A DNA stretch of 64,000 nt from Mustelus asterias (taxonomy: Eukaryota): the NCBI RefSeq assembly GCF_964213995.1, contig NC_135812.1, positions 79,546,001 through 79,610,000 of the forward strand. Reading direction: 5' to 3'. The position numbers and the translations under genes were made by a program. Positions 2,112 to 47,850 of the stretch are shown here, piece after piece (position 1 is the first letter of the stretch; every line of letters starts with the position of its first letter). The notes beneath the pieces are model-generated. The model was given only the letters and a program-made list of their open reading frames with translations, searched no databases and had not been told where the DNA came from.

Positions 2112-5100
2112 ATGGCTACTTACCATTTTCCAAGAATTCTTTGTTTTATTGTGATTTCCTTCTTTGTGACCATTATAGCTGGTGGTGAGTAATACCAGTA
2201 TATAACTTCTGCCATATTCAATGTTTCTATTACGTGCCTCTGTACCATAAAGGATAAATGCTAATAGATCATTATATTTATTTCAGACGCATTTATAAAT
2301 GTCTGGTGTAAGAATCCAGTCACAGGGATCCATAACAAACGCACTGTTTTGGCTTGTGAGTACAAGTCAATGAAGAAGAAAGAATGTAACTGTAGCTGGA
2401 CTCACATGACAATGAATCCTACTGGAATCCCATGTACATCCAATAAAAAAGCAAATGCCCCGGAAAGAAGAAGGTGTCTCACAGATTCAGGAAATGTAAC
2501 ATTGATAATTGAGAAAACGGAAATTTTGGATGAAGGGAAATATCAGCTTCTCGTAGACTGTGAATCAAGTGGTTATAAAACAGCAGATACCGAACTTTTG
2601 GTGAAAGGTAGGTAAAGAAAATCCCTTTTTGTCACCAGAACAGTACAAGAGATTGAAATATTTCAAATCAAGCATTGAAGATGAAAACTAATAGGGTTAC
2701 ATCAATATTTATAATATTGGTCTTTTCTGTGTCAGTATGGTCTCATGTTCCTAAGGATAGATAAATACTTGTGATGATTTAACGTTGCTAGCCATGTACG
2801 TCTGAAGTTGGCTATAATGTTGTTGGCATAAAATCAGACAGAATCCCTGTTTCTGGTTGATTCCAATAATACCTTCTGAAAGTATGTATGAGTAGACATT
2901 GGGTGACAAAGCAATTGAGCTTGGTTTTAAGGCCCCAGTGGTTGAAGCTCATGTCATAATTTACTTTCAGGATTCACAAATGACAAACAACCACCTTGGC
3001 TGAGGTACTGGAGAGGCCTTTTAAACATCCTGCTTCCAGAAAGTGCTGCTCCTGGGTCAGCTGGCTCAACTGCAGCCCACACCCGCGCACCAATGAAGAT
3101 CTTGCCTTGTGGGCACTTTCTCCAGAGGCAGGCTTGCTGAGCCATGAATTTTCCCAATCCCATTGCCAACCTCATGGATGAAAATTTAGACCTACTATCC
3201 CAATATTTCTACACAGAATGCATTCACCTGCATTCACTCCATCATTCAAGAGTAATGGATCTTTATAGAGTAATGGATGTCTGGGCTCTTAGACAAGCAT
3301 ACATCATGAACCTTAGCTGCAAACCGAGGAAGCCCTATTACACTTGTTAAATAGCTGCACCCCAGAGAAAACATTGCTTCACTGACAGCTCTAGTCTGAT
3401 CTATGTGGTCAATTTCACTCTTTTTATAGAAAACTAAGCAGTTTGAAGAGTTTGTGATTTCTGTTATTGATACTTTAAAGGGTCTTACTGATTGATATTT
3501 TTATTCCCTTATCATAATGTGACTTCCTTAACACAGTAGAAAGTAATGAACGAATGAATTTTTTAAAGCTTATTTTACACACCCTGCTGTCATTATAGGG
3601 CTCATTGCTGTACTATGCAGTTTATAAATAGGTCAATAAGCATTGCAGTACCATAGCTTGGTATAGGGGACACCAGGGGCCTTGAGAGGTAGTGGAGAGA
3701 CAAAAGTTGACATGGGTGTATGAGGGTCCATCGGACCATCGGGGTGGGTAGAGTGGCATCATTTGGCATTGGGGGAATGAGGGGCCATGGGGCTGGGTGC
3801 AGGGGCATAGTTTGTTATAAAGGGCTTGAAGAGGATCTTTGGCACTCACCTTTTTAAAAGTCCCCTTGTGAAAAGTAGAGTTCATGAGGAGACCATTGGA
3901 GGGGGATGAACCATAACTCATGAAAGACTGTGTCCAACTCCATGAATATATTGGAGGACTAGGATGTGCCGAGCTCCACAATGAATGGGGAGTTCCGGCT
4001 GTCAATGTTTGACAGTCACAAGCCAGCATCCTTTAAAGGCACTTCTGGAAGTCAGACAGCCCAGAGATAGGATTGGAAATCCCAGAATTGGTCCCGCCTG
4101 TCATTTTTAAAGAGGCCATCATGAATCAGTGGAAACTCAGCCTATAATGTTTGTGATGCTACTGGAACGATTGGTGTTGGTCTTGTTAAATCCAGCTGTA
4201 CATCACTAACTTGGATTTGCAACATTAAACTTGTAAAACATGTTTTCAGCCAGATATACCGTACCGCAAGTAACCAAAAGCGACCGAGGTGGTGAGAAAG
4301 GTCTTTCTTGTACCACAGTTGGATATCCTTTGGCAGAACTTCACTGGCAGATTGAAAATGGAACCAAATTAACTGCTAATTCCAGCATAATACAAATGGA
4401 AGATAAGTTGTACAACATCACTACTTACATTTCAGTCATTGACGAAGGGTATTGCATAAACTACAGTTGCTCTGTATGCATTGAAAATGCATGCACATCT
4501 GCAAGTAAGTTTATGCAAGCTTTTTTTTCCCATGATTTTCATTGCCTAGTACACATGTAGGAAAGAAAAGATATGGACTGAGGGAAATATCTCTGCAAAT
4601 GATGCTAACCCAAGAGCTCACATACAATAAAATCATTAGTGAGTTGTGGTTGCCTTGAGCACTGCAAATGCAAAGTGCTCACGGGTATAGTGCAAAACAT
4701 ATTTAACAAAATGTGGTAGGCTGACAATCTGAAGGGAAAAATTAAAGTGAGGTTATTGATCTACAGGGACCCAGGTTTAATTCCTGGCTTGAGTCACTGG
4801 CTATGAGGAGACTACATGTTCTCCCCATGTCTGTGTGGGTTTCCTCCCACAGTCTGAAAGATGTGCTGGTTAGGTGCATTGGCTATGCTAAATTCTCCCT
4901 CGATGTATCCGAACAGGTGCCGGAGTGTGGCGACTCGGAGGTTTTCACAGTAACTTCATTGCTGTGTTAATGTAAGCCTACTTGTGACACTAATAAATAA
5001 ACTTTTAACTAAGCTTTAATGGTGGTCTCCCACTAGCATTGTTTTCTGCATGGCGAAATTCTATAAGGACAGAAGCGTTATTCTATTTAACACAGAAAGT

Positions 5101-8100
5101 GGAGCTTTCTTTAACATTACTTGCTCCATTGAGGCACATAGCTACATCTTGAGGAAATGTCATGGCTAATAGAAGTTAAGGAACTCCGAAGATTAAGATA
5201 AATTAAAATGACTTGTTTCTCTGTTGATTGGAGGCAGATCAGAAATGTTACAATATATACTACTGCCTCACAGCGCCAGGGACCCGGGTTCGATTCCCGG
5301 CTTGGGTCACTGTCTGGCGGAGTTTGCCCGTTCTCCCCGTGTCTGCGTGGGTTTCCTTCGGCTGCTCCGCTTTCCTCCCGCAGTCCGAAAGACACGATGG
5401 TTAGGTGCGTTGGCCATGCTAAATTCTTCCTCAGTGTACCCGAATAGGCGCCGGATTGTGGCGACTCGGCGATTTTAACAGTAACTTCATTGCAGTGTTA
5501 ATGTAAGCCTACTTATGACATTAGTAAATAAATATAAATAAATATAAATATATAAATATGCGCATCTCTTTAAGGTAGTGTTTGCTGTATTTCTTAAGTG
5601 AGAGATATGATTGCCGGGAAATATGGGGAAAAGCCAGCACTGTAAGGAATGGACTCTTGAGTTTTAAGTTGAGGCATTTCTTTGAGATGGAACAGAAAGC
5701 ATGGTGTTTTGGAACAAAACTCTTTGGTACTTAACATGGGACTTCCCACTTTGATACTGTCTGGAGAAAGTATTCCCAAACCCCAACTACTTTCACCATG
5801 AGCAACATAAAATTCAAACTGCACTCTCCCAAAATAGCTCAAAAATTCCCCCAGAGGAGATTTTGTTTATAATACAATCCCAGAATTGAATTATTTCCCA
5901 TGCACCCTAATTCAATTACCATTGGCTCCACAAAACACAAACTGATTTGCATTTTCCTGTGGATGGGCCCACTATTACTTAGAACTTTAACAATGCCATA
6001 AAAGGGAACACCATTTTATTCTATAAAGTATAGATGTTTTAAGGAAAATACTCATCCTAATTCTGTATTCATTTGTAAGGCTAAGAAAACATGTGGCTTT
6101 GGTTTGATGTTAGCAACCCTCAGCAGTAGTTCTTGGTACTTCTGAAGCTGCCATGAATTTATGTCACAAATTTCTGAACCATTCCAGATGGCAAAGCTGT
6201 GTCTCTGGAAGCCGGAGAATGTGAAGTCTAGCACTGAGCCTGAGAACCTGAGAAACTCCGCAATAATGTTAGGAAAATGGGAGGCCCAGTAGCTCTTGTG
6301 GATAGGCAAGACTGCTCTGACTGGAAGTGAATGGTTGGAGATGTCAATGGGGACATGTCAAGGGAGGACAAGTAATCAGGTCCAAGCTTGGAGTTTGGTT
6401 AGAGAGGAATCTCTTTTTCAATTGAGAGAAAAGGCTGGATGCTCGCGGCCGTTGAGTAGGAGTTTGGGGATCCATTAAAATCATCGATTGATCAAAAATA
6501 CTAAATAGCATATCATTTAAGTGTGACATTCAGATTGCAAGAGGACCCAGACTCATTTTTTAATGTTACATTTGTAATGTAGTGGGAAAAGTGAACACAA
6601 TGTCTGATATAATAAAAGCGAAGTACTGCAAATACTGGGAATTTGAAATAGAAATAGAAAATGCTGGAAAAGCTCAGCAGGTCAGGCAGCATCTGTGTAC
6701 AGAGAAGCAGAACTCTGTAGAAGAGTCATGTGTCTGTTTCTCATGTTGCTATTGTGTAGTCAGGTCCCAGCATAATAGATTGTAACTTCTATAATTTGTT
6801 TCCAGAGGTGGATGAACAGAGTCACAGCGTTGCCATTTAACTTTCAATAAAATAATAAAACATTTATTAAACAAGAAGATGTTAACTATAATACATTATT
6901 CATTCAGCCAACTCTACCTTTTATAGATCTATAGAGATTTGTTAGGATAACACAAATTACAAATTTATCTTAGGCTCTGTAATGTTATCATGCAAATCAA
7001 CAGGGCCAACTGTGGCCCCAGACAAACCATACTCTGAAACCAAGTGACCTGATGCCACCCAAAACAACTTCTGTGGATTTCTCATCAAATCCCCCCTCAG
7101 ATGCTTTTCACACTCTGAACCAACTGATCTCATTGGAACTCTGATGTCCATATGAGGGTTTCCAAACTCCCCTCTCAAAGAACATGCCTGAAATCTTGCC
7201 CGAAGCAGAACATTCTCTCAGATGCCTTCACCAAGGATCCACCTCCAGCATTTCAATCTCTCCATACTGATATGCCTTGGATTTGCCACTTGCATTCAAG
7301 CTTCCACACCTTGCCAACAGAACACCACTGCTTCACAGGCTGGTTTAAGGTGCCACCAAACTTTTGATTTACCTCGGATGTCTGGCTTCTCACCTAGCTG
7401 ACCTTAAATCTGGTTCTTGCAGCTGTCCCTTTAATTCAGAATACTTCCTCTGCTTCTTACTTGAATTCTCCTGGACAGGACCTTGAGTTTTTCCAGCTTT
7501 TTCTGTTTTTATTCCAGTGCCTACTATACTTTGTTCCTGAATAAAACCCATCAACATACTTCTGCACAATATGTATTTTTTAAAATTTCTTTTATGATGT
7601 GGACAGTATTGAATATTTTAGATGACAAGCATTTTTTAAAAATCTGCGATCTTAGTTAAATTGTTATATCACTTCTGCTCCTTATTGCACTCTAGGCAGT
7701 AAGTCCCCGTTTCCACTTGCCATGTCCTGCTGCAAACTAGTAATATCGCTGAACCCCAACCTGCGGTTGACACTATCTGTCAATTTGTTCCTGTTTCCTG
7801 AGTCCAAAATGAACATCACTAATTCCTATTCATTGAGTGCCACTTAATTCTGATAATGTGGCCAAGGGCAATGTCTAATCGAAGGAAGCACTTAGGCACA
7901 ATTGTATAACTAAGTCATTGCTACATAATTCATTTAACCCATGGCACTGTGATCTCATAAATTAATATAATATGCTCCGTCCTATTTTGCACAAAAGATG
8001 TTTGAAGTAAAGCTCTCAGAGTACATGATATAAATTGTAATTAAACATGCCAATTATATACCTGTCATTTCAGGATTGGACAATCCTAAAACGGAAGGAA

Positions 8101-11100
8101 ACTATCAGCAACAAGAACCAAAAATCAGAAAATCTACTGGTGTTTATTTCTCTCTGGGCTTCGTCATCGTAATTTTCGCACTTCTGGCAATGATGGTGCC
8201 CCTTTACTGGAGAAATCAAATTTCTCAAGGTACAATATTAGTTCAAATAAGGGCAATGGCAGAGCTGTTTTTGCTGAGGAGCTTTCCAAGATTACATTTT
8301 CCTTCTCCAAAGCTGCATTAAAGTCCGCTCCCATCCCCCCACTCCACCCCCTCCCAACCACTCTTCCTCCCTCTGACTTACGGGGCAGAATTTAATCATT
8401 CCCTAAAGGCAGGTTTGAAGATTGGATGGCCAGTTAAATAAACCGGTTGACCTCTCTGTCGCCCTTTCCACATTGGGCTCTCCCTCACCCAAGGTCTTCC
8501 CTCTCTCCCCCTTGTTTGTTCCTCCCCCCTCCATCTTCTCTAACAAATTCTCCCGATCACCTTGGAGACACCCTTCGCATTCTCGCCTAAAGACCCCCAG
8601 TACATACCTGCATCTAGCTCCAGGGCTTTGCGCTGGGGACTCCCTGTAGTCCCATCTCAATTAGCTTGGCCAACTGCTCTCTGATGCAAGATTTCCACCT
8701 GAGTGATAAAGTGAAAGCCACACCTCCAGCCAATTAACACTCGTTAAATGGCTGAGGGATGGCCGACATCAGCAAGGATACGTTCTCTACCAACTCTTCA
8801 GGTATTGTAAACACCACTCCTGTTAAATTCTGCCCAGGGTGTAAAATTGCACTCTATACCTGTCAACGTGACCACTTTTCACATTAAATATAGGCAGCCT
8901 ATATGAAAATAAGATGGTCATAGCTGTGTTTAGTCCAGTTTTCTCCCAGTGTCACTATCACGTTTGCTCAGCACCAAAAACAACTCACATTTATATTGTC
9001 CCTTTAACAGAATAAAACATCCACACGGGGGCACAGTGGTTAGCACTGCTGCCTCACGGCACTGGGAATCCAGGTTCAGTTCCGGCTTTGGGTGGCTATC
9101 TCTGTGGAGTTTGTACATTCCCCCCGTATCTGCCTGGGTTACCTCTGGGTGCCCCAGTTTCCTCCGTCACTCCAAAGATCTGTGGGTTACATTGATTGGC
9201 CATGCTAAATTTCCCCTTAGTGTCAGAGGGATTAGCAGGGTAAATATGTGGGGTTACGGGGGTAGGGCCTGGGTGAGATTGTTCTCGGTGCAGACTCAAT
9301 GGGCCTAATGGACTCCTTCTGCATTGTATGATTCTATGATAAATCTAAAGCACTTCACAGGAGTGCAAGCAGATGAAAATTAATGTAATTCTAAAGGAGA
9401 AAGGTGGAGAATCAATTAGGTTTTAGGAGAGAATTCCAGAGCTTAGGGCGAAGGCAGTCAAAAGCCTAGCTACCAATGGTGGAGATGCAAAAAGGGCCAA
9501 GAACCCTTGGAATGAAACATTCTCGGAAGGCTGTAGGGATGGCAGAGTCTGTAAGGGTAGATAGAGAGGGCTGAGGATAAAAAGGATTTAAGTACATGTT
9601 TGACAATTTTTACTATGGGGTCTGGGAGCTAATGTAGGTCAGCGAGCATTGGGTTGGTGTGTGTGGGGAATGGGGGGGGAGTGCATGGCTTGCAGGTGAG
9701 TGAATAGGATTTGATGCTAGTTGGATTATAGACACCAGAACTCACATTTATGGAGGGTGAAAGATGTGAGGCCAGCCAGGAGAGGACTGGTATATTTGAG
9801 ATTGGAGGGAATGAAAGCATTAATGAGAGTTTGAGCAGCAGATGGACTGAGGCAATGACAAAGATAGGTGGAAACAGTCAATCTTGATGATGGAAAGGTT
9901 ATTCCAGCTAAAGCCATTGAATAGCATTCAGCAAATGAAATTTTGATTGATATTCGTTCACCTTAACTGAAAGACACTAAGTATAATATTAACGTCCCCA
10001 GTAGCTGCTCTGGCTGACATCAGCTGATTGAATTCCAACAACTGCATCTGGGCCAGGATTCTCCCCAAAAAATTCTAAATCCTCAGTTCATGTGAAAACG
10101 GTAATAACTCTCCCGTCGATTTCTTTCGCGGGATTTTCAGATTGAATCTCCCACACTCTGAGCACTGCAGAGTGCACTAGCGGGATTCCCTCTGAAAATC
10201 AGAGGCACGGCCTATTCCGACCGAGAGGCCGGCACCAGAGGGACGAGCGGGCCACTGCGCAGGCGCTGATCTGTCAGTATGGAGATTGGCGCGTGCTCAC
10301 TCACCCCGCATTGCCAGCCTCCTGATCACTGGCCAGCCAGGAGAATCCCCATTGAACCACCATCCCCCTCTCCCCACCACCACCCCCCGATCGCTGGCCT
10401 TCCGGGCCTCTTCAGGCCAACCCGATGTCTTCCCACCCCCCGGCAGTCCCGACAAACCCCCCCACCCCAGCAGCTGTAACTCCCCCAGTAGCCCTGACCC
10501 CCTCCATCCACCCCAATGACCCCGATGGCCATCCCCGATCACCATCTTCCCTCCTTCTACCAGCAATCCCATTGCAGAGTGGCAGTGGGACACCCCCACT
10601 GATCGCCCCCTATGGCCCCCTATAGGCCCTGACCCCAATAGGCCCTGCCCCCTCTGGCCCCTGCCCCCTTGGCACTGCCTGATGCCTAATGGGCAGTGCC
10701 AATGTGCCCCTTGGCCATTGCCAGTTTGCCTCTTGGGCACTGCCAGGCTGGCCCTGCCCTGCTGGCACTGCCCAGATGCCACCCACCTCACTCTGACCTA
10801 CTGGGACTCTGTTCCCTCCAGTAGGGTCCCCATCCACGGGGAGCAGTAGGAAACCCTGCTGGAGTGAACCATACCATACTCTCGCGGGCCCAGAGACTTC
10901 AGTCCAGGCCCGCTAATGATATGCTACTCACAATTTAAATATTGAAATCAGCTCCATGCCAATTTCAGGCGCAGAGCTGATGGCGCTAAAAATCTTGACC
11001 CCTGAGATGCACAGAGGCTCAGGGGGTCCCGAAACAGCCTTCTGACGTCCCCTGGCCCATTACACTACTAGAGCAGTGCAGCGGGCTGGAAGAATCTCCC

Positions 11101-11609
11101 CCCTTGATCTTTATTCCTTGGTACTCGATGTCGGATCGGATCATTGAGTGCTCCAGCTTGCTATGCTCATGGGGCTGCAGGGAACTGATTTTTAAAATTG
11201 ACCAATAATTTTATTTTCCAAATGATAATTAGAACATTAAACTAAGAACTTTAATGTATTGACAACCACATATAAAGCAACGCTAAGTGGGGCTGTAACT
11301 TTTTAGATTGTTGCACTACTAACTAACATGCCTTGTTCGTGCTTTAACGCAATGACCAGAAAGAAGAATGGCAGGAAAGTATTCAATGTATGATGTTATG
11401 TATGAGAGTAATCTATTGCTAACATAAAAGCTGCTTGAAAACTAATATTTTCATTTTCACTAAAGCGTTCATGAGGCCACGATCCAAATCAGCAACATCA
11501 GACTTAATCGGTATGCAACTCTCTCAGAATATATTTTATAATTTGCAATGAGAAGTAGTCCTTTACATTTCATTATTGAACTTTATTTCCAACAGAGAAT
11601 GCTGAATAA
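2112..11609 (+). CDS. Gene 1: B7-family / PD-L1(CD274)-like type I membrane Ig-superfamily protein (signal-IgV-IgC-TM-short tail), 287 aa, cysteine-rich
   Basis: Hand-spliced GT-AG exons, all phase 1: 2112-2184 (MATYHFPRILCFIVISFFVTIIAG), 2287-2607 (IgV), 4250-4504 (IgC), 8074-8229 (stalk+TM), 11466-11510 (AFMRPRSKSATSDLI), 11596-11609 (ENAE*). Total 864 nt, open frame; AATAAA at 11900. Confidence 0.85.
2287..2607 (+). CDS. Gene 1 IgV exon
   Basis: tttcag acceptor, AAG/gtaggt donor; V-set motifs LAC, SW, GNVTLIIEKTEILDEGKY; 7 Cys. Confidence 0.9.
4250..4504 (+). CDS. Gene 1 IgC exon
   Basis: tttcag acceptor, /gtaagt donor; LSCTTVGYPLAELHW...YNITTYI...NYSC, a B7-type C domain. Confidence 0.9.
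4765..5005 (+). mobile_element. tRNA-derived V-SINE (HE1-like)
   Basis: B-box-like head, V-domain ttctcccc..gtgggtttcc, tail gtaacttcattgc..gtaagcctacttgtgac. Confidence 0.8.
5258..5530 (+). mobile_element. V-SINE (HE1-like)
   Basis: gggttcgattccc B box, V-domain, same tail. Confidence 0.85.
8074..8229 (+). CDS. Gene 1 stalk + transmembrane exon
   Basis: tttcag acceptor; hydrophobic GVYFSLGFVIVIFALLAMMVPLYW; phase 1/1 fits. Confidence 0.8.
8383..8835. mobile_element. MITE with perfect 13-bp TIR
   Basis: GGGCAGAATTTAA at 8383 / TTAAATTCTGCCC at 8823-8835. Confidence 0.7.
9025..9340 (+). mobile_element. HE1 SINE with HER1-type tail
   Basis: ggcacagtggttagcactgctgcctcac head; attctatgat tail. 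Confidence 0.85.
10050..11103. mobile_element. Harbinger-type MITE related to 691-1554
   Basis: Imperfect GGG-starting TIRs; shared internal gatcgctggcc and ggcactgcc motifs. Confidence 0.6.
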
Positions 11610-18090: not shown

Positions 18091-18240
18091 TTTAAAGTTT
18101 ATTTATTAGTCACAAGTAGGCTTACATTAATCCTGCAATGAAGTTACTGTGAAAATCCTCTAGTCGTCACACTCTGGTGCCTGTTTGGGTACACTGAGGG
18201 AGAATTTAACATGGCCAATGCACCTAACCAGCACATCTCA

Positions 18241-19357
18241 GGAGCATTGGATCTCATGGGATAAAGGGGGAGGTGGCTAGATGGGTGGAGAACTGGCTTG
18301 GTCACAGAAGACAGAGGGTGGTAGTGGAAGGGTCTTTTTCCGGCTGGATGCCTGTGACTAGTGGTGTTCCGCAGGGCTCTGTATTGGGACCTCTGCTGTT
18401 TGTGATTTATATAAACAATCTGGAAGAAGGTGTAACTGGGGTGATCAGTAAGTTTGCAGACGACACAAAATTGGCAGGACTTGCAGATAGTGAGGAGCAT
18501 TGTCAGAGGCTACAGAATGATATAGATAGGCTGGAAATTTGGGCAAAGAAATGGCAGATGGAGTTCAATCCTGATAAATGCGAAGTGATGCATTTTGGTA
18601 GAAATAATGTAGGGAGGAGCTATACGATAAATGGCAGAACCATAAAGGGTGTAGATACGCAGAGGGACCTGGGTGTGCAAGTCCACAGATCCTTGAAGGT
18701 GACGTCACAGGTGGAGAAGGTGGTGAAGAAGGCATATGGCATGCATGCCTTTATAGGACGAGGCATAGAGTATAAAAGTTGGGGTCTAATGTTGCAGATG
18801 CATAGAACTTTCGTTCGGCCGCATTTGGAATACTGCGTCCAGTTCTGGCCGCCACACTACCAGAAGGATATGGAGGCTTTGGAGAGAGTACAGAGGAGGT
18901 TTACCAGGATGTTGCCTGATATGGAGGGGCTTAGTTATGAGGAGAGATTGGGTAAACTGGGGTTGTTCTCCCTGGAAAGACGGAGGATGAGGGAAGACTT
19001 AATCGAGGTGTATAAAATTATGAAAGGCATAGATAGGGTGAACAGTGGGAAGCTTTTCCCCAGGTCGGTGGTGACGTTCACGAGGGGTCATAGATTCAAG
19101 GTGAAGGGGGGGAGGTTTAACACAGATATCAGAAGGACATATTTTACACAGAGGGTGGTGGGGGCCTGGAATACGCTGCCAGGCAAGGTGGTGGAGGTGG
19201 ACACACTGGGAACATTTAAGACTTATCTAGATAGCCACATGAACGGAGTGGGAATGGAGGGATACAAAAGAATGGTCTAGTTTGGACCAGGGAGCGGCGC
19301 GGGCTTGGAGGGCCAAAGGGCCTGTTCCTGTGCTGTATTGTTCTTTGTTGTTCTTTG
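18241..19357 (+). mobile_element. 5'-truncated CR1-clade (HER1-like) LINE, ORF2 RT C-terminal part
   Basis: ORF 18273-19280 with GVPQGSVLGP, KFADDTK, RPHLEYC; ttctttgttgttctttgttc tail. Confidence 0.93.
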
Positions 19358-25069: not shown

Positions 25070-25631
25070 TTCCTGGAATGCTCTGTGAGGAAGGATACCA
25101 AGGACGAAGTGTTTGACAATTGCAAGTCTAACTAACAGCAGTGTTGCTGGGGAAAGTTCTGTGAATGCACACCGCTCAGATACATTTGTTCCCCTTTTTT
25201 GGCGATTGAAACTCGTTATTTGCCAACCCGACTGCTGCTGGCCAGTCATATTGAAACAGAAAGTAAAAAACAAGGAAGAAAAAAAATCTGGAAGAGTCAA
25301 CTCTTCGCTGGCTTCAGTTTCAACGGCGGCGATGCACAGGAAAACGGTGGATGAACTGCAGAGATGACCTCTGTTCGCTGTTTGTTGTCAACACCAGCTA
25401 ACAGGCGCTGGTAACTTTCCCAGATTGATCAACAGATCGAGAGCCGACTGCCTCAACTTTCTCCCCGCAGATCCCAGCTTTCGGTTCCGAGTCCAGCGGT
25501 GTCCGGATCCCTGAAACACTCGCAGCAATTGTCTAAGTGTGGGATTTTGTATGGTGATTTCTGTTGGGTCAGTTTGAACCCCCGCTTGGTGCTGGACAGG
25601 TTGAACGTCTGCATTTTGTTGGATATAAAAG
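25070..25631 (+). promoter_or_regulatory. Gene 2 promoter and non-coding exon 1 (GAS, NF-kB, ISRE-like motifs)
   Basis: TTCCTGGAA 25070-25078; GGGAAAGTTC 25150-25159; GAAACAGAAAGT 25253-25264; GGTAACTTTCCC 25410-25421; donor AAG/gtacag at 25632; paralogous to 41626-42095. Confidence 0.6.
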
Positions 25632-25868
25632 GTACAGTTTGACTTTCAGAAACGTAAGAATTGTTTCATTGACATTTGTGTAAAGCTCACGTCCCCAGCA
25701 TCTGGTGTGAATTTGAGTAGTTCAACTATACACCCATTAAATTCCCGACAAAACCTACCTTACGATGCACAAACAAACTGAATCAGATTTGATTTCGATT
25801 ACTGAGGGTTGGGAAGCAGCAGGAGAACTGGCAGTAGTCTGGTACCATCCTGCTGGCAAAACATATTG

Positions 25869-27437: not shown

Positions 27438-27638
27438 TGAAAGGGTCAGGCCACTATCCTCAAATGAAGTTAATTGGATAGTCCAGCACAATGCTGCACG
27501 CCTGGGTCCCATTGCCCACCAAAGCAAGTTTATCTGCTGCATTCAACAGGACATGATCCACTGAAACAAACTCAGCCTTGCGTTTTTAGTGATTTTTCTC
27601 TATTACCTTCATATTAGCAGGTGAACTGAATTCCGGTA

Positions 27639-30600
27639 ATGGATATACACCGTGCAATAATTTTCCTTAATGTCATCTTATGCAAAGGTGCATCCTTTGC
27701 ACAGAGTAAGTATTGGAATATTACTCAATTTATAGTTCATTGAACACTGATTATCACTGAGGCAATCTCAACTAATGAAAATTCTTGTTTTTCAGGCTTT
27801 GTGTCATTAGATTGTGAGAATGTAGCGACAGGAATATTGAATGAAGACACTAAACTAACATGCTCAATCCAATCAACAATAGTAAAAACATATGATTACA
27901 TTGAACTGAGTAAAATTGAAAAAAATGAAAAACGAACATCCGTGTTCAGCTTAAAAGCTGGTGCCAAACAACCTCATAATCGAATTATAATAATTCATCC
28001 AGATTCAAAAAATGTATCACTGTTAATCCAGAAAACACAGCTGCAAGATGAAGGGAATTATCAATATTATTTGGAAACAGTTTCTGGTCATGACTATCAA
28101 GTCATCACGTTGAAGGTTAAAGGTGGGTAACAGTATTCTTTCCCTGATATTCTCCCTTCTATTGGTTGCCTGTAATTAGCAACAAATTCCTATTTTGTTT
28201 GCACAGGGCGGCACGGTGGCACGGTGGTTAGCACTGCTGCCTCACAGTACCAGGGCCCAGGTTCAATTTCTGACTTGGGTCACTGTGTGGGGTTTGCACA
28301 TTCTCCCCGTGTCTGCGTGAGTTTCCTCCGGGTGCTCCGGTTTCCCCCCACAATCCAGATGACGCGCTGGTTAGGTGCATTGGCCATGCTAAATTCTTCC
28401 TCAGTGTACCAGAACAGGTGCCAGAGTGTGGCGACCAGGGGATTTTCACAGTAATTTCATTGCAGTTTTAATGTAAGTCTACTTGTGACAATAATGAATA
28501 AACTTTAAACTCAAACTTATCTAAAAGCTTGACATGTGAGAGTCAAACAGTAAGTTATAATAAGAGTCATGTTGAGAGAAGAAATCATGGTTATGCATTT
28601 CTAAAAAACCTTTCATATCTTTAGAACATCTTAAATCACTGAAGTTAGAGGAGGATGCACATGCACTATTTGCTATGTAATCTAAACAGTTTGGAATTCA
28701 CATATTCAGAAATCAGATCAAAATCCCAAATTTGAGCCATTAAATATTTTCTTCACCCCTACACATCTGTCACCTTAAGTAAATAAATTAAATCCCTACT
28801 GCTGTCATCTTATTGTTGTGGTCTATTGCTGGCTGATGAAGTGGAGAAACTGCTCCTATGTTATTCTATGCCTCTCTCTTATTACATTAATAAAAATGTA
28901 ATTTATTTTCAGCTCCATACAGTTTGCCAAAAGTGAGGTTGGCATCAAATGTCACAAGAAGGATGAAAGCGACGGACCTCATCTGTGAAACGACTGGCTA
29001 TCCACTCTCTGAGATTCACTGGTTTGTCTATGAGAAAACAAACCTCACCTCTCGTGCTGAAACTAATCACGTAAAGACCTCACAGGGGCTGTTCAAGCTC
29101 ACCAGTACACTTCCGATCACCGTTGCAGAAAGTGCTTTGGAAGGCAATTACACTTGTGCTGTGTGGAATGTGGAAGAACGTGTATATGAGGTTAAGAAGC
29201 ATTTTCCAAGTAAGTTCATAGCTTTTATCCAAAACAGTCTCAGAAAATAGCTGCTTAAAGAATTGATTTTGTTCTTTTCTTGTGTTGAAGATGAGTGCAA
29301 TGCCACAAAATCTAATTTACCACCTGTAACCATTTTTCTTGAGAAGGTTTTGTGGCTTCCTATTAAACTGCTGCCATCCTTTTCCTCTGTGCAGTTCCAA
29401 CTTCAACATGTCCCTTTATAATTAATATCATCATTATTATACATGCAAAGGTTGAAACTGGAGATTGCAATTAATTAAATTTTTCCACCCAACTTTTCAG
29501 TTCCCTTCTTGGATGAACCTAATACTCACCGGCAAAGTGAAGAAAAAAAGACTCAGGTTCTCACGGCCATCTTTGTCATTGTTGGAGCGCTTGCAATTGG
29601 AATAATCATCTTGACTATTTTTCGATTCAGGAGAAATTTATATACAGGTATGATGATTGTGTAAAGGTTTCTGATTTCTAACAAACTTTTCAGACTTTGA
29701 TACATAAATTCTGACATCTTATTGAAAAAATACCCTTGCTTGATTTTTTTTTGTTTTTGAATACAGCCCAGAATCTAGAAACCTGATAATTCTGTTTAAA
29801 CATATTATCTGGCCAAGAAAGGGAGGGCGGAATCTGAAACACTCTCAATGGCTTCAGGTTCTGCCTGGCATTCTTATTCACTTCCCAGAGTTGTGTGCTT
29901 ATTAGGTTCTTAGCCCAATCATTGGATGTCCAGTACCTCTCTGAGGATGAAAACATTCACCAAATATTTGCTTAAGAAATAGAAAGAAGTTTAATGCTCT
30001 GGATTTTCCCTACTTGACCTGAGTCTTCTTGCTTCCTTACATTCTAGTTGGTTAAAGTGGATAGGTGAAAAGGTGGCTGATTAACGCACCACGATAATAA
30101 GCCTGTTACCCAGCTTCTAGCTAGAGAATGTAGAAAAACTCCAGATTAGTCACATTGAATAACTCTGGAGCACCTTCTGTTGAGCTGCATCCAAACATCA
30201 AACAGAATTGGAGGAGGTAGCTGCAGGAATGAGTCATCTGTGACACTTCAAATCACAAATTCCAAGCTGTAGTGTTTAGTACAGGAAGAAGCCAATCAGA
30301 TAGGGGAAAAAAGGAAACATTCTCTATGTAGGAACTACAACTTCTAAAAAAATCATCCTCTAGTTGTGATCAACGTTTATTGCCCTGAAAATACATTTTT
30401 CTTTGTAGCCTTTTATAACTGACTGGCCTGCTGGGCTAATTCAGGGATCAGTTAAGAATCAACCGCATTGGTGTAGGACTTGAGACACATATCAGACAGA
30501 CAGAGTAAGAACTGTAGGTTTCCTTTGCAAAAAAAGATTAGTAAACCCTTTTGTTTTTACAACATGGTCAAATATTGACCAAAGATTCAGGGTCACCTTC

Positions 30601-32244
30601 TAAAAATTTAAAGTTTATTTATTAGTGTCACAAAAAGGCTCACATTAGCACTGCAATGAAGTTACTATGAAAATCCCCTAGTCGCCACACTCCGGCGCCT
30701 GTTTGGGTATACTGAGAGCGAATTTAGCATAAGAACATAAGAAATAGGAGCAGGAGTAGGCCATCTAGCCCCTCGAGCCTGCCCCGCCATTCAATAAGAT
30801 CATGTCTGATCTGAAGTGGATCAGTTCCACTTACCCGCCTGATCCCTATAACCCCTAATTCCCTTACCGATCAGGAATCCATCTATCCGTGATTTAAACA
30901 TATTCAACGAGGTAGCCTCCACCACTTCAGTGGGCAGAGAATTCCAGAGATTCACCACCCTCTGAGAGAAGAAGTTCCTCCTCAACTCTGTCCTAAACTT
31001 ACCCCCCTTTATTTTGAGGCTGTGCCCTCTAGTTCTAGTTTCCTTTCTAAGTGGAAAGAATCTCTCCATCTCTACCCTATCCAGCCCCTTCATTATCTTA
31101 TAGGTCTCTATAAGATCCCCCCTCAGCCTTCTAAATTCCACGAATACAAACCCAATCTGCTCAGTCTCTCCTCATAATCAACACCCCTCATCTCTGGTAT
31201 CAACCTGGTGAACCTTCTCTGCACTCCCTCCAAGGCCAATATATCCTTCCGCAAATAAGGGGACCAATACTGCACACAGTATTCCAGCTGCAGCCTCACC
31301 AATGCCCTGTACAGATGCAGCAAGACATCTCTGCTTTTATATTCTATCCCCCTTGCGATATAGGCTAACATCCCATTTGCCTTCTTGATCACCTGTTGCA
31401 CCTGCAGACTGGGTTTTTGCGTCTCATGCACAAGGACCCCCAGGTCCCTCTGCACAGCAGCATGTTGTAATTTCTTTCCATTTAGATAATAATGCATGGC
31501 CAATGCACCTAACCAGTACGTCCTTCGGACTGTGGGAGGAAACCGGAGCACCAGGAGGAAACCCACGCAGACACGGGGAGAAGGTGCAAACTCCATATAG
31601 GCAGTGACCCAAGCCAGGAATTGATTGCAGGTCCCTGAAGCTGTGAGGGTTATAAATACCAAGGTTCCTTTTAAAAAAATGGAATTCATATTCTTTCGCT
31701 GTGATAATGGGATTTGAACATATGTCCTTGGGATTGCTAGAACAATTTCTTGAATAGTTTGTTAACGTGACCGCCACATAATCACCGAGTCAAGTTGGAA
31801 GAAGAAAAATTGTAAGGCAAATAGGTGATTGCATTTATTTTGGATCCCCTTTCTTATCAGATCATTTTTGTAAATCATTGGACAAATGAGTTAGAGAAAC
31901 TCTTCAAGTGTCAATTAGTCAAAATATGAGCATTGTTGATAACTGATAAAATTATCACAATTGTACAGAGATTGCTATATTTCATACGATTGGAACTACA
32001 AGAAATAATGGACTACAGTTTTGTACAGCTGGAGATGTATATTCAAATTTTATGTACTAGAAATAATGAATTAATTGTTTCTTTATTGTTTTACTTTCAG
32101 TGATTCAAAGGGAGTCGACAATGCCAATGGTAGGTGCGATTTGAAATATCTGAATTTTTTTTTCGAAGACTTTCTGTCATTGGTTTCATCATTTCCTTCA
32201 TTTCATTTTAACAGATGCAAAGTGTCCAGGGTGCTGATAGTTAA
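27639..32244 (+). CDS. Gene 2: B7-family / PD-L1(CD274)-like type I membrane Ig-superfamily protein, 298 aa
   Basis: Exons 27639-27705 (MDIHRAIIFLNVILCKGASFAQ), 27796-28122 (IgV), 28913-29209 (IgC), 29501-29647 (TM), 32101-32129 (VIQRESTMPM), 32215-32244 (MQSVQGADS*). Total 897 nt, open. V/C junction SGHDYQVITLKVKAPY resembles PD-L1 GGADYKRITVKVNAPY (from memory). Confidence 0.88.
27796..28122 (+). CDS. Gene 2 IgV exon
   Basis: tttcag acceptor, AAG/gtgggt donor; TKLTC...NVSLLIQKTQLQDEGNYQY. Confidence 0.9.
28206..28510 (+). mobile_element. V-SINE in gene 2 intron 3 (absent from the paralogous gene 3 position)
   Basis: gggcggcacggtggc head; flanks align across it to 43080-43100. Confidence 0.87.
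28913..29209 (+). CDS. Gene 2 IgC exon
   Basis: APY...LICETTGYPLSEIHW...GLFKLTSTL...NYTCAVWN; /gtaagt donor. Confidence 0.9.
29501..29647 (+). CDS. Gene 2 stalk + transmembrane exon
   Basis: VLTAIFVIVGALAIGIIILTIF followed by RFRR; tttcag acceptor, CAG/gtatga donor. Confidence 0.87.
30731..31493 (-). mobile_element. CR1 LINE 3' fragment inserted into a V-SINE (30605-30730 / 31494-31648) in a gene 2 intron
   Basis: ORFs 30821-31141 and 31123-31689; short GCAT duplication at the junctions. Confidence 0.9.
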
Positions 32245-41625: not shown

Positions 41626-42095
41626 TTCAGAGAAAATGCATCGTTTGAAGTGCTTCTGTGCTGGGAGGGAAAGTTCGGTGACATCAGGCACATCTGGCTT
41701 TTTTCCTCTTCTTTGCCAACTCCCAACTCGCCAAATGTCCAATCATAGCGAAAGGGAAAGTTTAAAGGCGAGGGAAGAAAATGTGGAGCGCCAGTTGTTC
41801 CCTGTTTTTGCACTGAGTCGATTATAGGAACCAGAGATAACTTTTGTTCGCTGTTTGTTGTCAACACCAGCTAACAGGCGCTGGTAACTTTCCCAGATTG
41901 ATCAACAGATCGAGAGCCGACTGCCTCAACTCTCTCCCCGCAGATCCCAGCTTTCGGTTCCGAGTCCAGCGGTGTCCGGATCCCTGAAACACTCGCAGCA
42001 ATTGTCTAAGTGTGGGATTTTGTATGGTGATTTCTCTTGGGTTAGTTTGAACCCGTTGGACAGGTTGGATCTCTGCATTTTGCTGGGAACAAAAG
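41626..42095 (+). promoter_or_regulatory. Gene 3 promoter and non-coding exon 1 (GAS, NF-kB, ISRE-like motifs)
   Basis: TTCAGAGAA 41626-41634; GGGAAAGTTC 41667-41676; CCAAT 41739; GAAAGGGAAAGT 41750-41761; GGTAACTTTCCC 41883-41894; donor AAG/gtacag at 42096. Confidence 0.6.
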
Positions 42096-42532
42096 GTACA
42101 GTTTGACTTTCAGAAACTTTAAGAATTATTTTATTGACATTTGTGTAAAGCTAACGTCCCCAGCAATGCAAATGCATCTGATGTGAATTTGAATGCTTCA
42201 ACCATACATCCTCCCATGAAAGGCCGGACAAAATCTACACAAAGTGAATCAGGTTTGACTGAGATTACTGAGGGTTGGGAGACAGCAGGAAAACTGAAAT
42301 TGCCAGTTCTCTAGTTGGCTCTGGAACTTTGGGGGGGGGGGGGGGGGGAGGGGCAGACCACCGTCCTCAAATGATGTTAATGCCTGGGTCCCATTGCGCT
42401 CCCAGAACAAGTTTGTCTGCCGCTTTCTGACCCATTAACAGGACTTGATCTCTTGTGAAAAAAAAACTGCCTTGTGTTATTAGTGATGTTTTTCTATTAT
42501 ATTCATATTAGCAGGTGAACTGAATCCCGGTA

Positions 42533-45500
42533 ATGGATTTACACCGTACAATAATTTTCCTTAATGTCATCTTATGCAAAGATGCATTCTTTGCGCAAAG
42601 TAAGTACTGGAGTATTACTCAATTTATAGTTCATTGAACACCGATTATCACTGAGGCAATGTGAACTAATGGAAATTCTTGTTTTTCAGGCTTTGTGACA
42701 TTAGATTGTGAGGATGTAGTGACAGGAATATTGAATGAAGACACTAAACTAACATGCTCAATCCAATCAACAATAGTAAAAACATATGATCACGTTACAC
42801 TGAGCAAAATGGAAAAAAATGAAAAACGAACATCCGTGTTCAGCTTAAAAGCTGGTGCCAAACAACCTCATAATCGAATTATAATAATTCGTCCGGATTC
42901 AAATGATGTATCACTGTTAATCCAGAAAACACAACTGACAGATGAAGGGACTTATCAATATGATTTGGAAACAGTTTCTGGTCACAGGGATAAAGAAATC
43001 ACACTGAAGGTTAAAGGTGGGTAACAATATTCTTTCCCTGATATTCTCCCTTGTATTGGTTGCCTTTAATTAGCATCAAATTCTTATTTTATTCTCACAT
43101 CTAAAATCTTAACATGTGAGATAGGCAAAATGTAAGTTATAACCAGAGTCATGTTGAGAGAAGAAATCATGATTGTGCATTTCCAGAAAACCTTTCATAT
43201 CTTTGGAAATCTCAAAACATATTTTAGCCTTTGAAGTTAGCGGAGGATGCATTGATGATTTAGGTGACCACATTGTAAGGCAGGATAATCAGGATTTGCT
43301 TATTATAGAGGGAGTACAGCGAAGGGCTACCAGGCTGATTTCAAAGATGGCAGGTCTGTCATATGAGGAGAGACTAAGATGGTTAGGATTATATTCACTG
43401 GAGTTTAGAAAAGTGCGAGGATCTCATAGAAACTTATAAAATTGGCACAGTGGTTAGCACTGCTGCCTCACAGCACCAGGGACCTGGGTTCGATTCCTGG
43501 TTTGGGTCACTGTCGGTGTAGAGTCTGCACATTTTCACTGTGTCTGCGTGGGTTTTTTCCCCCAGTCCGAAAGATGTGCTGGTTAGGTGTATTGGCCATG
43601 CTAAATTCTCCCCAGTGTACCTGAACAGGTGCTGGAGTGTGGCGATTAGGGAATTTTCACAGTAACATCATTGCAGTGTTAATGTAAGCCTACTGGTGAC
43701 ACTAATAAATACACTTTTAAACTTTCTAACAGGGTTAGACAGGGTAGATTCAGAAAGAATGTTCCCATTGGTGGGGGAATCCAGAACTAGGGATAAGGGG
43801 TGAACCTTTTAGAAATGAGATGTGGAGAAATTTCTTCACCCAGAGAGTGGTGAATGTGTGGAATTCACTCCCACAGAATGTAATTGAGGCCACAACATTG
43901 TCTGATTTGAAGAAAAAATTAGATATAGCTCTGGGAGCAAGGGATACGGGAGGAAGGAGGGAATCAGGATATTGAATTTGATGATCAGCCATGGTCAAAA
44001 TGAATGGCGGAGCAGACTCGAAGGGCTGAATGGCCTACTCCTGCTTCTTGTTTCTATGTACTATGATTTGATGCACACCCACTAGTTACTATGTAATCAA
44101 ACTCAATATCCAGTCTATCGATACTAAATAAGCTTGATTCGCAGAGGTTGCAGATGTATTCTAGAAAAATATCCAAGATTTCTATACAAGCATATATTTG
44201 GCACAAAATGTAGAAAGAAAAGTGCAATAAAATCTGACTAATGAGTTTTGAATTGAAATATTAAGAATGCAGGCCAAAGTCATAAACTGACACCATTAAA
44301 TATTATCTCTTTCACACACTGTATCAAAGGTAATCTAAGTGTAAAGCTGATCTAAGTGTAATTAATTTATTGTGGTAAATCTGGGAATTACTATTTACTG
44401 AGAACTGTTGTTCTTTACTGGGTGCAGAAGAAGCATAAAAAACTGTTTTATATCATTTTACAGTGCTTTCTCATCACAATAATAACAGCATAATCATGTT
44501 TAGCTCCATACAGTTTGCCAAATGTGACCTCACTCTTGAATACTACAACAAGCACTATAAATCTAAATTGTGAAACAACTGGATACCCACAGGCACAGAT
44601 ACATTGGTTTGTCAATGGAAACCTCACATCTGAGTCTAATAGTTACAGTAATAAAACCCCAGCGGGACTGATGAAGATCACCAGCATACTTCAAACCAAT
44701 AAAGGGCGAATTACCTCGGAAGACAATTATACTTGTGCTGTGTGGAATATAGACGAGAATGTATATGAGGTCCAGGAACAGCTTTCGAGTAAGTTCATAG
44801 CACTTATTCTTCAAATCATTTCAACAAATAATTTTTTAAATTATTAATTTTAATGAATAATTAAAATTTTAAAACTTAAATTCATTCTATTTGCTCTCAA
44901 TATGTGAATAATGCCACAAGGCTCTATTTAATACCCATGATTATATCCTCTGAGAAGCTTGTGGATCGTTATAAACTGTTGCTGTCCTTTTCCTCAGAGT
45001 ATTATTTGAACGTCGACTTTGCTGTTGTCTTAGTCATGGAAGCATAGAAATAAGTTATGCATATTTATGCATATGAAGACTGATACTGGAATTAATAATT
45101 AATTAAATTGTTCCCCCCCCCCCCCCCCCCCCCCCCCCACATTTTCATTTTCAGACTTCGGTCCAACTCAACGAAGAATAAAGAGGAAGAAATCGAATCT
45201 CATCACTGTCTTTGTGATTATTGGAGTAGGTTTTCTTGCACTAGCAATCTTGGTGGTTTGGCAACTGCAGAAAACAAGTCAGCCAGGTATGATGATTATA
45301 GAAATGTTTCTGGCTCCTTTTAAAAGTTGTAATTATTGCAAGAATAATTACATAAGCTTCTGTTTAAAATATGTTTGCTCAGCCTTTGCACATGCCTAGA
45401 ATCTGGTAACCAATTCAATTATAGAACATAGAACCAGACAGCTCAGGAACAGGCCCTTCAGCCCACGATGTTATGCCCAACATGATGCCAAATTAATCTA

Positions 45501-47850
45501 ATACCTTCTGCCTGTCCTTAGTCCATATCCCTCTATGCCTTGCATATTCATGTGCTGATCTAAAAGCCCTAAAATGTCCCTCTCATATCCCTGAAGACAA
45601 TTATACCTGTGCTGTGTGGAATATAGATGAGAAAGAATATGAGGTCCAGGGACAGTTTCGGAGTAAGTTCATGGCACTTATTCTTCAAATAATTTCAACA
45701 AGTAATTTTTTTAATGACGGCGCGTTCCAGAAACCTACCACTCTCTGTGTAAAAAAGTTGCCCCTCAAATCTCCTTTGAACTTTCTCCCTCTCACCTTAT
45801 GTGCATGCCCCCTAGTATGAGGCATTTCAACTCTGGGAAGAAGATTCTGACTGTCAACCCTATCTATGCCTCTCAAAATTTTATAGACTTCTATCAGGTC
45901 TCCCCTCAGCCTCTGCTGCTCCAGAGACTATAGACTTATATACCAACTATATAAGTTCCAAAACTTAATAAAGATGACAGAATCTCAAATATCCTGAGCA
46001 GTTTCAGATTCTGTCTGCCATTCTAATTCACTAGCAAGCTCTTTGCTGAACTGCCGAACCAAATATCGTTATTGATCAGGAAAATGTTTGCTGATTAGTT
46101 TGCTCAGGAGACTTCGAGAGACAACTCAAGCTATGACTGTTGCCTAATGAGTTACAACCTTTAGATTTAGTTGGGTGATGAGCAGAGAGACAAGAAACAA
46201 ATCGTAATTTACATTTTTCTACCCCTCAATGAAGAAAAGCACAGATGAGGCAAACTGAACTGCTCTGGAGCACCTTCTATTGAGGCACATTCAGCAAGCA
46301 ACATTGGCAGAGGTGTGTGGAATAAGTTACCTTGGAGGTTCTCCACCCGCCAAGGGAGAGGTGAATGGATGAAGGAAAGGAAGGAAACAAACAAATAAAT
46401 CTTTAGTTGTGTGCACCTCTGGCAATGCTGGTATTTATTTTGGAGTAGTCATGAGTTGATGGTAGGCCATCCCCATTGCCTTGTAATACAATCAATAACT
46501 TGCTCAGCTCATTCAGAAAAAAGGCTGGGGCAACCATATGGGTGGGCTACTTGACTCAAGTAGAGGACTGTAGCTTTCCTTCCCACAAAACACTTTTCAG
46601 GACGTTGTTGTAAAAATGACTGAATTTTATTTATTAGCATCACAAGCTTACATTAACACTGCAATGAAGTTCCTATGAAAATCCCCTAGTCACTGCACTC
46701 TGGCGCCTGTTCATGTACACTGAGGGAGAATTTTGCCTGGCCAGTGCACCTAACTAGCACATCTTTCGGACTGTGGGAGCAAACCAGAGCACCCCGAGGA
46801 AACCCACGCAGACATGGGGAGAACGTGTAGACTCCACACAGACAGTGACCCAAGCCAGGTCCCTGGTGCTGTGAGGCAACAGTGCTGACCACTGTGCCAT
46901 CGTGCTGCCCATTCTTCAGGGTAGTGGTAGCAGCTTTTTTTTTTAAAGAAATATCTGAATTTGAATGCTCACTTTGTGATGGTGGGATTTGAACTCTCTT
47001 TTTGAATCACGAATCCAGACTTCTGTCTTACTAATTTGGTAACATAATCAGTACAATACTGTGCATTCCTCATCAAATCAGAGGGCTGAAATCTTATGTA
47101 CAGGATTGGTGATTGAACTTAATTTGGATCAATTTGGTTATGAAGTTTTTTTTATGGTTAGCTAAAGGAGTAGCAGAAATTGTTTGAATGGTCATTATGT
47201 GAGTATTGCATATAACAGTCAATATGATGGCAACTGTACTGAGATTACTGCCTTTATTATATTATTGGGTGGCACGGTGGCACAGTGGTTAGCACTGATG
47301 CCTCACAGCGCCAGGGACCCGGGTTCAATTCCCAGCTTGGGTCACTGTCAGTGTGGAGTTTGCACGTTCTCCCCGTGTCTGCGTGGTTTTCCTCTGGGTG
47401 CTCCGGTTTCCTCCCACAGTCCGAAAGACGTGCTGGTTAGGTGCATTGGCCATGCTAAATTCTCCCTCAGTGTACCCAAACAGGCACTGGAGTGAGGCAA
47501 CTAGGGCATTTCCACAGTAACTTCATTGCAGTGTTAATGTAAGCCTACTTGTGACTGATAAATAAAGAAATAAACTTTATATGTGATTCAGAGTTTTAGA
47601 AATATAAGAAATAATGAACAGCAAATTTTCAGAGCTGGGCAGGTTAATTCAAATCAAACATTATGTGCCTAAATAATGAATTAATTGTTGTTTTGTTTTT
47701 ATTTCAGCAGTTAGAAGTGCATGCAGAATCTCAATGGTAGGTATAATTACAAACGTTAGCCTATTTTTCAAAGTCTTGTGTCATTTGTTATCAATTAAGA
47801 TTTTTGTATTCTTTTAACAGATGTCAAGTGACCAGAGAACTGATGTTTAA
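42533..47850 (+). CDS. Gene 3: paralog of gene 2, B7-family / PD-L1-like protein, 289 aa
   Basis: Exons 42533-42599, 42690-43016 (IgV), 44504-44788 (IgC), 45155-45286 (TM), 47708-47736 (AVRSACRISM, NAGNAG acceptor), 47821-47850 (MSSDQRTDV*). Total 870 nt, open; leader, V and both tail exons have the same sizes as in gene 2. Confidence 0.88.
42690..43016 (+). CDS. Gene 3 IgV exon
   Basis: Same length as gene 2 V exon (327 nt); 17 amino-acid differences. Confidence 0.9.
43275..44066 (+). mobile_element. Degenerate CR1 3' fragment with nested V-SINE (43443-43725)
   Basis: EGVQRRATRLI...LSYEERL; ttctatgt tail. Confidence 0.8.
44504..44788 (+). CDS. Gene 3 IgC exon
   Basis: APY...LNCETTGYPQAQIHW...NYTCAVWN; /gtaagt donor. 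Confidence 0.9.
45155..45286 (+). CDS. Gene 3 stalk + transmembrane exon
   Basis: LITVFVIIGVGFLALAILVVW; CAG/gtatga donor. Confidence 0.87.
45421..45927 (-). mobile_element. CR1/HER1 3' fragment (hosts the orphan exon copy)
   Basis: atagaacatagaac tail; minus-strand MRGIDRVDSQ...TRGH...FFTQRVV. Confidence 0.85.
45593..45715 (+). pseudogene. Orphan copy of the 3' end of an IgC exon plus its donor and intron start, embedded in a LINE fragment
   Basis: Encodes EDNYTCAVWNIDEKEYEVQGQFR, then gtaagttcatggcacttattcttcaaat; homologous to 44719-44840. Confidence 0.85.
46625..46910 (-). mobile_element. V-SINE
   Basis: Reverse-complement pattern. Confidence 0.83.
47267..47580 (+). mobile_element. V-SINE
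   Basis: Full head, V-domain, tail. Confidence 0.87.

Follow-up and report, generated by a model that had tools for sequence, protein, structure and literature searches.

SECTM1 (K12), a ligand that stimulates T cells, is described as a placental-specific protein with an odd immunoglobulin (Ig) domain that has gone unexplained, and it adjoins its receptor CD7 at 17q25.3 (PMC4603632). According to the same source, its Ig region runs from Trp33, holds two invariant cysteines, Cys38 and Cys55, that are predicted to pair in an atypical bridge, lacks the canonical bridge, and carries the motif G113-x-Y115-x-W117-x-L119-x-G121-x-Q123. The function of the mammalian pair is treated in PMC13223139, PMC10320215 and PMC8515872, human SECTM1 being myeloid (PMC13223139), and CD7 is a target of chimeric antigen receptor T cells for which SECTM1 has been used as binder. 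No paper was found that ties SECTM1 to fish, sharks, non-mammals or B7, and the main text of PMC13262535 mentions neither SECTM1 nor CD7; earlier B7 surveys or orthology tables may already cover the family described here. The window, a 64,000-nucleotide stretch of Mustelus asterias DNA (contig NC_135812.1, positions 79,546,001 to 79,610,000), holds a tandem cluster of three genes at 2112-47850. With a probability of roughly three in four, these are co-orthologues of mammalian SECTM1 that keep an ancestral V+C form beside CD7 and are predicted to bind CD7 and to costimulate T and natural killer (NK) cells. The reading rests on a Cys signature, CD7-like neighbours, 17q25-type markers, fused gene models in other fish, a model of the complex and a parallel in myeloid expression. 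A first-pass annotation had proposed a tandem cluster of B7-like ligands with a likely costimulatory role; the B7-type architecture and the single cluster of three genes bear this out, the role remaining a prediction, while SECTM1 beside CD7 had not been considered.

All three same-strand genes of that annotation are confirmed at 2112-47850, given that a search of AG/GT sites yields one exon set per RefSeq protein, with canonical splice sites, and reproduces the RefSeq Mustelus asterias proteins letter for letter. Each gene encodes an IgV+IgC ectodomain, a transmembrane segment and a short tail on phase-1 domain exons; every leader, V, C and transmembrane exon ends in phase 1, and 6/6 Ig exons match Pfam Ig models. 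Gene 1 has five or six coding exons, genes 2 and 3 have six each.

2089..11609, + strand: gene 1, RefSeq XP_078081611-15, automatic name PD-L2-like; leader, V, C, transmembrane, optional 45-nt and terminal exons (coding exons 2112-2184, 2287-2607, 4250-4504, 8074-8229, optional 11466-11510, 11596-11609); product 287 or 272 aa, depending on the optional exon
2287..2607, + strand: gene 1 IgV exon; Cys32/Cys48 pair, F-strand Cys absent, five additional Cys
4250..4504, + strand: gene 1 IgC exon; butyrophilin/B7-type C2-set_3 at the curated cut-off
8074..8229, + strand: gene 1 stalk and transmembrane exon
27621..32244, + strand: gene 2, XP_078081616.1, automatic name PD-L1-like, 298 aa (coding exons 27639-27705, 27796-28122, 28913-29209, 29501-29647, 32101-32129, 32215-32244)
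27796..28122, + strand: gene 2 IgV exon; Phe24, Cys29, Cys45, G109-x-Y111-x-Y113-x-L115, Gly120; predicted CD7-binding face on the F, G and C strands
28913..29209, + strand: gene 2 IgC exon; top PDB matches CD276, PD-L2 and PD-L1
29501..29647, + strand: gene 2 stalk and transmembrane exon
42515..47850, + strand: gene 3, XP_078081617.1, "uncharacterized" in RefSeq, 289 aa (coding exons 42533-42599, 42690-43016, 44504-44788, 45155-45286, 47708-47736, 47821-47850)
42690..43016, + strand: gene 3 IgV exon; 91% nucleotide identity with the gene 2 V exon
44504..44788, + strand: gene 3 IgC exon; 66% nucleotide identity with the gene 2 C exon
45155..45286, + strand: gene 3 stalk and transmembrane exon

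The V domains bear the resemblance to SECTM1. Numbered on gene 2, Cys29, Cys45, G109, Y111 and G120 are invariant in 36/36 aligned elasmobranch proteins (37 profile matches minus one short isoform). Across the 48 of 50 family rows that were parsed (31 elasmobranch, 17 bony fish), an N-terminal Cys pair stands in 47 at a gap of 15-16 residues (16 in the shark genes), an aromatic residue lies at -5 from the first Cys in 38, and the F-strand Cys is absent from 37, including 31/31 elasmobranch rows; outgroup rows keep the F-strand Cys (8/8) and mostly lack the N-terminal pair (7/8). From the second Cys to the G-x-Y motif the family counts 57-73 residues and SECTM1 58. The form G-x-Y-x-W-x-L/I is found in three of four coelacanth rows, and genes 2 and 3, which lack the C-strand Trp, have G-x-Y-x-Y-x-L with the Gly three residues later than that of SECTM1 and the Gln absent. 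The canonical B-F disulfide of the V domain, kept in 11/17 parsed bony-fish rows, would thus have been lost secondarily or repeatedly within the family, a loss overlooked when these exons were first called IgV. The V+C form of the shark genes is read as the ancestral state, and what is claimed is co-orthology, not identity of form. Among batoids the number of domains varies: a skate model (P0090) is V-V-transmembrane without a C domain, in parallel with SECTM1, and stingray models (P0017, P0018, P0020, P0024) are V-C-C.

The neighbourhood points the same way. Two CD7-like genes lie 43 and 105 kb downstream of gene 3 on the same strand, with no other gene found between, and their V exons, at C12:79,637,134 and 79,698,829 (C12 being the contig of the window), are the only two matches genome-wide.

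C12:79,632,772-79,643,015, + strand: CD7-like copy 1; candidate leader, Cys-bearing stalk/transmembrane exon, tail ending VYEDM
C12:79,698,829-79,705,229, + strand: CD7-like copy 2; partial tail-exon match, YEDM frame not found

Compared with 1054 PDB sequences, the CD7-like exons have human CD7 as their top single-domain match (E 2.9e-12), only a multi-domain antibody standing above it on summed score. The V domains of the two copies are 92% identical; to judge from its tail, copy 2 may signal differently or be truncated. Further out, CYBC1 and a NARF-family gene lie at C12:78.34-78.38 Mb, 1.2 Mb upstream of the cluster, SEPT9 is the next identified gene downstream of the CD7-like pair (0.3 Mb), and a FASN-type gene is found at C12:85.47 Mb, 5.9 Mb downstream; all four count as 17q25 markers in location and strand. 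This is the flanking synteny found, and not the PLGRKT/JAK2-type neighbourhood named earlier as the marker of CD274, PLGRKT being on C6. What is conserved is the pairing of ligand and CD7 on a 17q25-type chromosome rather than the full human gene order. In one sturgeon model (P0188) and one teleost model (P0153), moreover, a family gene is fused to a V domain behind it, which matches the CD7-like exon of the shark (E 4e-12 for the sturgeon, 2e-4 for the teleost).

A model of the complex supports binding of the gene 2 V domain to the V domain of CD7-like copy 1: it scored 0.83, 0.83 and 0.81, the best of three unrelated controls scoring 0.00, with 100% contact agreement between runs and a partner pLDDT (predicted local distance difference test) of at least 90. 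The score mark is reached by 51/78 solved and 2/108 mismatched microbial pairs, and by 39/65 novel solved and 2/126 unrelated eukaryotic pairs. Modelling ran without alignments, so conservation at the interface was not fed in. The top contacts run from gene 2 Ser119-Gly120-His121 to CD7 Gly34, Tyr36, Tyr49, His51 and Thr56; on the ligand side Gly120 is invariant and position 121 is Tyr or His in 36/36, and 6/15 CD7 interface residues fall among the 17/113 positions invariant in four CD7-like rows (p=0.01). The positions at which genes 2 and 3 differ show no enrichment at the predicted interface (3/17, p=0.33). As for expression, the zebrafish family member zgc:174863 is enriched in microglia/macrophages, a parallel to myeloid SECTM1, and is listed without a human orthologue (PMC7720500).

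A wider proposal, favoured somewhat less firmly than co-orthology itself, is that SECTM1-CD7 is a costimulatory pair of B7/CD28 type that dates back to the first jawed vertebrates, its ligand having begun as V+C, exchanged its core disulfide for an A-B bond, kept its receptor as neighbour from shark to human and lost the C domain towards mammals. On the co-orthology reading a disulfide between the A and B strands would take the place of the canonical B-F bond, and the F/G/C face of the V domain, centred on Gly120 and the aromatic residue 121, would dock on the G-I-Y-L strand of CD7. Ligand on myeloid or epithelial cells would meet CD7 on T/NK cells V domain to V domain, with the C domain as a spacer. 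The signal would enter the CD7-bearing cell, given that the ligand tails have no recognisable signalling motif, and the YEDM tail of CD7 would recruit PI3K, as in mammals (a link taken from a reference title in PMC10320036). Mammalian SECTM1 would have arisen through loss of the C exon, and the three shark copies would differ in their strength as ligands, a pattern reported for mouse Sectm1a/b.

Several observations weigh against co-orthology with SECTM1. The comparison is made through published residue positions, with neither an alignment score nor placement in a tree; the signature is incomplete in bony fish, of which 11/17 parsed rows retain the F-strand Cys; the FG-loop Gly lies 11-12 residues past the first Gly of the motif in sharks and coelacanth vs 8 in SECTM1; and the disulfide geometry is unreadable from the model. 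No mammalian or other tetrapod SECTM1 appeared among matches in PDB, Pfam, Atlas, a viral fold library or the HMMER listing, nor among 57 matches within the best 7989 candidates of a word-indexed protein search, such blanks being weak evidence. Neither a CSNK1D nor a UTS2R motif turned up in C12:79.246-80.11 Mb (864 kb), and HEXD- and OGFOD3-family searches gave no match on C12. On the receptor side, the sturgeon CD7-like protein is nearer to antibody light chains than to CD7 (E 1.4e-6), and CD7 is absent from the best 60 of 117 matches of the teleost protein. CD28X likewise carries YEDM, but its neighbours are PUDP, STS and ANOS1 (PMC11599192), and its PPP loop is absent from the shark CD7-like exons. 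The complex score may reflect likeness to solved B7/CD28-type IgV-IgV complexes, the controls being unrelated proteins that include no other IgV domain, and the model does not tell which paralogue binds. CD7 itself occurs with partners in PDB entries 12hp and 12np. Finally, a 2015 BLAST survey that detected SECTM1 neither in zebrafish nor in chicken, platypus or marsupials calls the gene eutherian-specific (PMC4603632).

Much of this would suit a different history, in which a fish-wide orphan B7 family, lost in tetrapods, sits beside CD7 and maybe binds it, SECTM1 having arisen separately in eutherians. No tetrapod member stands among the matches listed, the flanking genes past CD7 are unlike the human ones, and SECTM1 has been called eutherian-specific. 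Such a history is nonetheless unlikely, for it needs two origins of the Cys pair and of the F-strand Cys loss at one site beside CD7, together with a chance G-x-Y-x-W in the coelacanth; and the cut-off of the 2015 survey (65-bit, 28% identity; PMC4603632) would miss relatives this distant.

Given that the genes are present in RefSeq under automatic names that conflict across the family (CD276, CD80, ICOS ligand, VTCN1-like, PD-L1-like, PD-L2-like), it might be asked whether they are divergent orthologues of some other B7 (CD80/CD86, ICOSL, B7-H4, B7-H6, HHLA2 or CD276), with a CD28-family receptor as partner. The C exon has CD276 as its top PDB match. The fold model used was built from 36 sequences (pLDDT 80), a five-sequence fold being poor (pLDDT 61); by Foldseek and VIA-align its V+C ectodomain is nearest to CD276, PD-L1, butyrophilins, B7-H6 and PD-L2. 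The earlier call of a B7-like V+C architecture and fold is borne out by this ranking and by the PDB matches of the C domain; in the PDB search the V domain by itself retrieves no B7 chains. The other-B7 alternative is improbable, however: the automatic names contradict one another, the structural scores are tied for butyrophilins, B7-H3, B7-H6 and PD-L2 (Z 16.1-16.7, nectins at 15.2), and the neighbouring markers belong to the CD7 chromosome. In a quick tree of 58 rows all 50 family rows fall into a single clade (98 by SH-aLRT, an approximate likelihood ratio test), and in a careful tree of 28 rows the 21 family rows do so at 99/97, apart from CD276-like, PD-L and HHLA2-like rows; the family groups with the CD276-like and PD-L rows at 86/82 among outgroups sampled from B7/butyrophilins only. 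These trees took in no CD80/86, ICOSL, B7-H4, B7-H6 or SECTM1 rows, a gap that leaves the other-B7 alternative some room, and their outgroup labels, except that of the genome's own PD-L1, are assumed from sequence features.

The trees also bear on the range of the family. A five-protein profile retrieves 37 proteins, all from sharks or rays (17 species by name, no chimaera). A full HMMER search gave 3378 matches, many of the 150 best listed being giant multi-Ig proteins; 42 of these 150 were examined, chosen mainly by length, and 20 named. Bony-fish members among the matches listed come from coelacanth, bichir, sturgeon, bowfin and teleosts, including zgc:174863, and the coelacanth has at least four genes, three of them with consecutive accessions, as tandem copies. 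The lineage-specific expansion suggested at first pass is rejected on these grounds: one clade runs from sharks to teleosts, with members in coelacanth and ray-finned fish, and the split of gene 1 from genes 2/3 predates that of sharks and rays.

That the genes are translocated or duplicated PD-L1/PD-L2 acting as PD-1 checkpoint ligands is very improbable, despite the names given to genes 1 and 2, an identical exon layout and, in gene 2, a D-Y that opens strand G. The genome has a canonical PD-L1 at C6:17.22 Mb (17,222,266-17,225,481), a locus that the C exon matches too, with V, C and transmembrane exons within 3.2 kb and PLGRKT 0.77 Mb away at C6:16.45 Mb; by eye it is close to the catshark PD-L1 in supplement 2 of PMC12151841, which describes a single PD-L gene in fish (Kondo et al. 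2025). When genes 2/3, four relatives and two PD-L rows are constrained to one group, the approximately unbiased (AU) test rejects the tree (p=0.0046), and the PD-L1-like Tyr occurs in only 3/36 family members. PD-L1 orthology and the "PD-L1-like" label are accordingly set aside, and the earlier caution in not claiming orthology to CD274 was justified, PLGRKT and PD-L1 sitting together on C6, away from the cluster. Equally remote are nectin- or CD200-like adhesion molecules with no costimulatory role, to which the language-model neighbours of the V domain (nectin-2, CD200R and CD200 clusters, 0.95) and an adhesion guess for zgc:174863 (PMC7720500) would point, since those neighbours are generic V-set matches, the C domain is B7-type and B7/butyrophilin chains outrank nectins structurally, if by a margin of only about 1-1.5 Z.

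Within the cluster, gene 1 is, as first described, more divergent than the other two: its protein is about 33% identical to that of gene 2 in both V and C, vs 84% (V) and 51% (C) between genes 2 and 3. The V domains of genes 2 and 3 are sisters (100/98), and their upstream block, leader, first coding intron and V exon are about 88-93% identical, compared with 66% for the C and 50% for the transmembrane exon. The gene 3 C domain is nearest to a second paralogue group (62-65%, vs 51% to gene 2), so that gene 3 is mosaic: its leader and V exon are gene 2-like, its C exon is nearest another group. The simplest reading of these identities would be gene conversion of the 5' half. Between genes 2 and 3, 17 codons differ non-synonymously and 6 synonymously among 108, with no sign of selection. 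Since the gene 1 branch, a Cys-rich branch of the family, has shark and ray members, the split of gene 1 from genes 2/3, and with it the cluster, is judged from the tree to be older than the shark-ray split. In this branch the V domain has as many as five additional Cys and the C domain ends in a Cys-rich stretch, a pattern that suggests more disulfides or dimers.

Of the seven-exon layout proposed at first pass, the coding exons are exact, and the non-coding first exon is a candidate, put forward because an AG acceptor precedes the ATG by 18-23 nt in every leader exon and an upstream block is common to genes 2 and 3. Of the gene 2 motifs noted then, all are present, with three residues, not two, between YP and I in CETTGYP..I.W.

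25359..25830, + strand: gene 2 candidate promoter and putative non-coding first exon; 87.5% identical to 41832-42296
41832..42296, + strand: gene 3 candidate promoter and putative non-coding first exon

For gene 1 the only candidate first exon is CpG-rich, with a donor at 1707. Mammalian SECTM1 is interferon-inducible, is expressed in myeloid and epithelial cells and has a soluble form. In the shark cluster promoter motifs do not rise above background, the interferon-gamma-activated-site-like (GAS-like) sites upstream of genes 2/3 being common across the window (31 sites). No fourth copy was found within 100 kb on either side, nor in a genome search, which gave 3 matches among 12 candidates. 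Past the gene 3 transmembrane exon, 45593-45681 holds a second copy of the 3' end of the C exon with its splice donor. The presumed first intron of gene 2 contains a 600-bp G-rich low-complexity tract (26800-27430), the gene 3 counterpart being a short G run. Elsewhere in the window, 23074-24110 consists of about four tandem 282-bp units, presumably resembling the 5' end of U2 small nuclear RNA, with no Rfam match at the gathering score; an Rfam scan gave no other match either. Short interspersed element copies are numerous, a 551-aa frame lies at 61882-63534 (-) and further frames at 54764-56308 (+) and 18228-19277 (+); the first of these is taken to be reverse-transcriptase/GIY-YIG-like, and several fragments to be CR1-type long interspersed elements. 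Outside the window there are what appear to be gag/pol-like frames of a long-terminal-repeat element near C12:79.48 Mb, upstream of the cluster, a presumed env-like frame between the CD7-like copies (no match in a Pfam search), and, at C12:79,794,800-79,838,927, a 20.25-kb segment repeated at 99.8% identity, a recent duplication or an assembly artefact.

Should co-orthology hold, SECTM1 would be a B7-family descendant minus its C domain, and CD7 signalling would date to the start of Ig/TCR/MHC immunity. The eutherian-specific view of SECTM1 would be overturned; SECTM1-like automatic names, which may exist in some non-eutherian tetrapods, would weaken that contrast, though not the B7 link. A misnamed fish gene family would gain a ligand identity, the orphan zgc:174863 a name, and the zebrafish would become a model for the SECTM1-CD7 pair. 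Residues conserved on both partners would mark the predicted binding interface.

Set against known systems, the cluster shares with B7/butyrophilins the phase-1 leader-V-C-transmembrane exons, the V+C fold (TM-score 0.7-0.8 to target, Z 15-17) and a B7-type C domain; it differs in a V domain that lacks the canonical B-F disulfide and fails by itself to retrieve B7 chains, in the missing C-strand Trp of genes 2/3 and in having no B30.2 domain. Shark PD-L1 agrees in exon layout and C-domain type, but its V domain is canonical and it stands apart, as one gene on C6. Among bony fish, zgc:174863 and the genes named "CD276-like" in sturgeon, bichir, bowfin, gar and coelacanth fall in the same clade and have the same A-strand Cys; in many ray-finned members the F-strand Cys persists as a third one. 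SECTM1/K12 at 17q25.3 is likewise a type I membrane protein beside CD7 with tandem duplicates, and shares the N-terminal Cys pair, the aromatic residue at -5, the absent F-strand Cys, the G-x-Y-x-aromatic-x-L motif and the FG-loop Gly. It has a single Ig-like domain where the shark genes carry an additional B7-type IgC, a Cys gap of 17 rather than 16, Trp117 in place of Tyr/Leu and a shorter FG loop, and its neighbours TEX19, UTS2R and CSNK1D were not seen near the shark genes.

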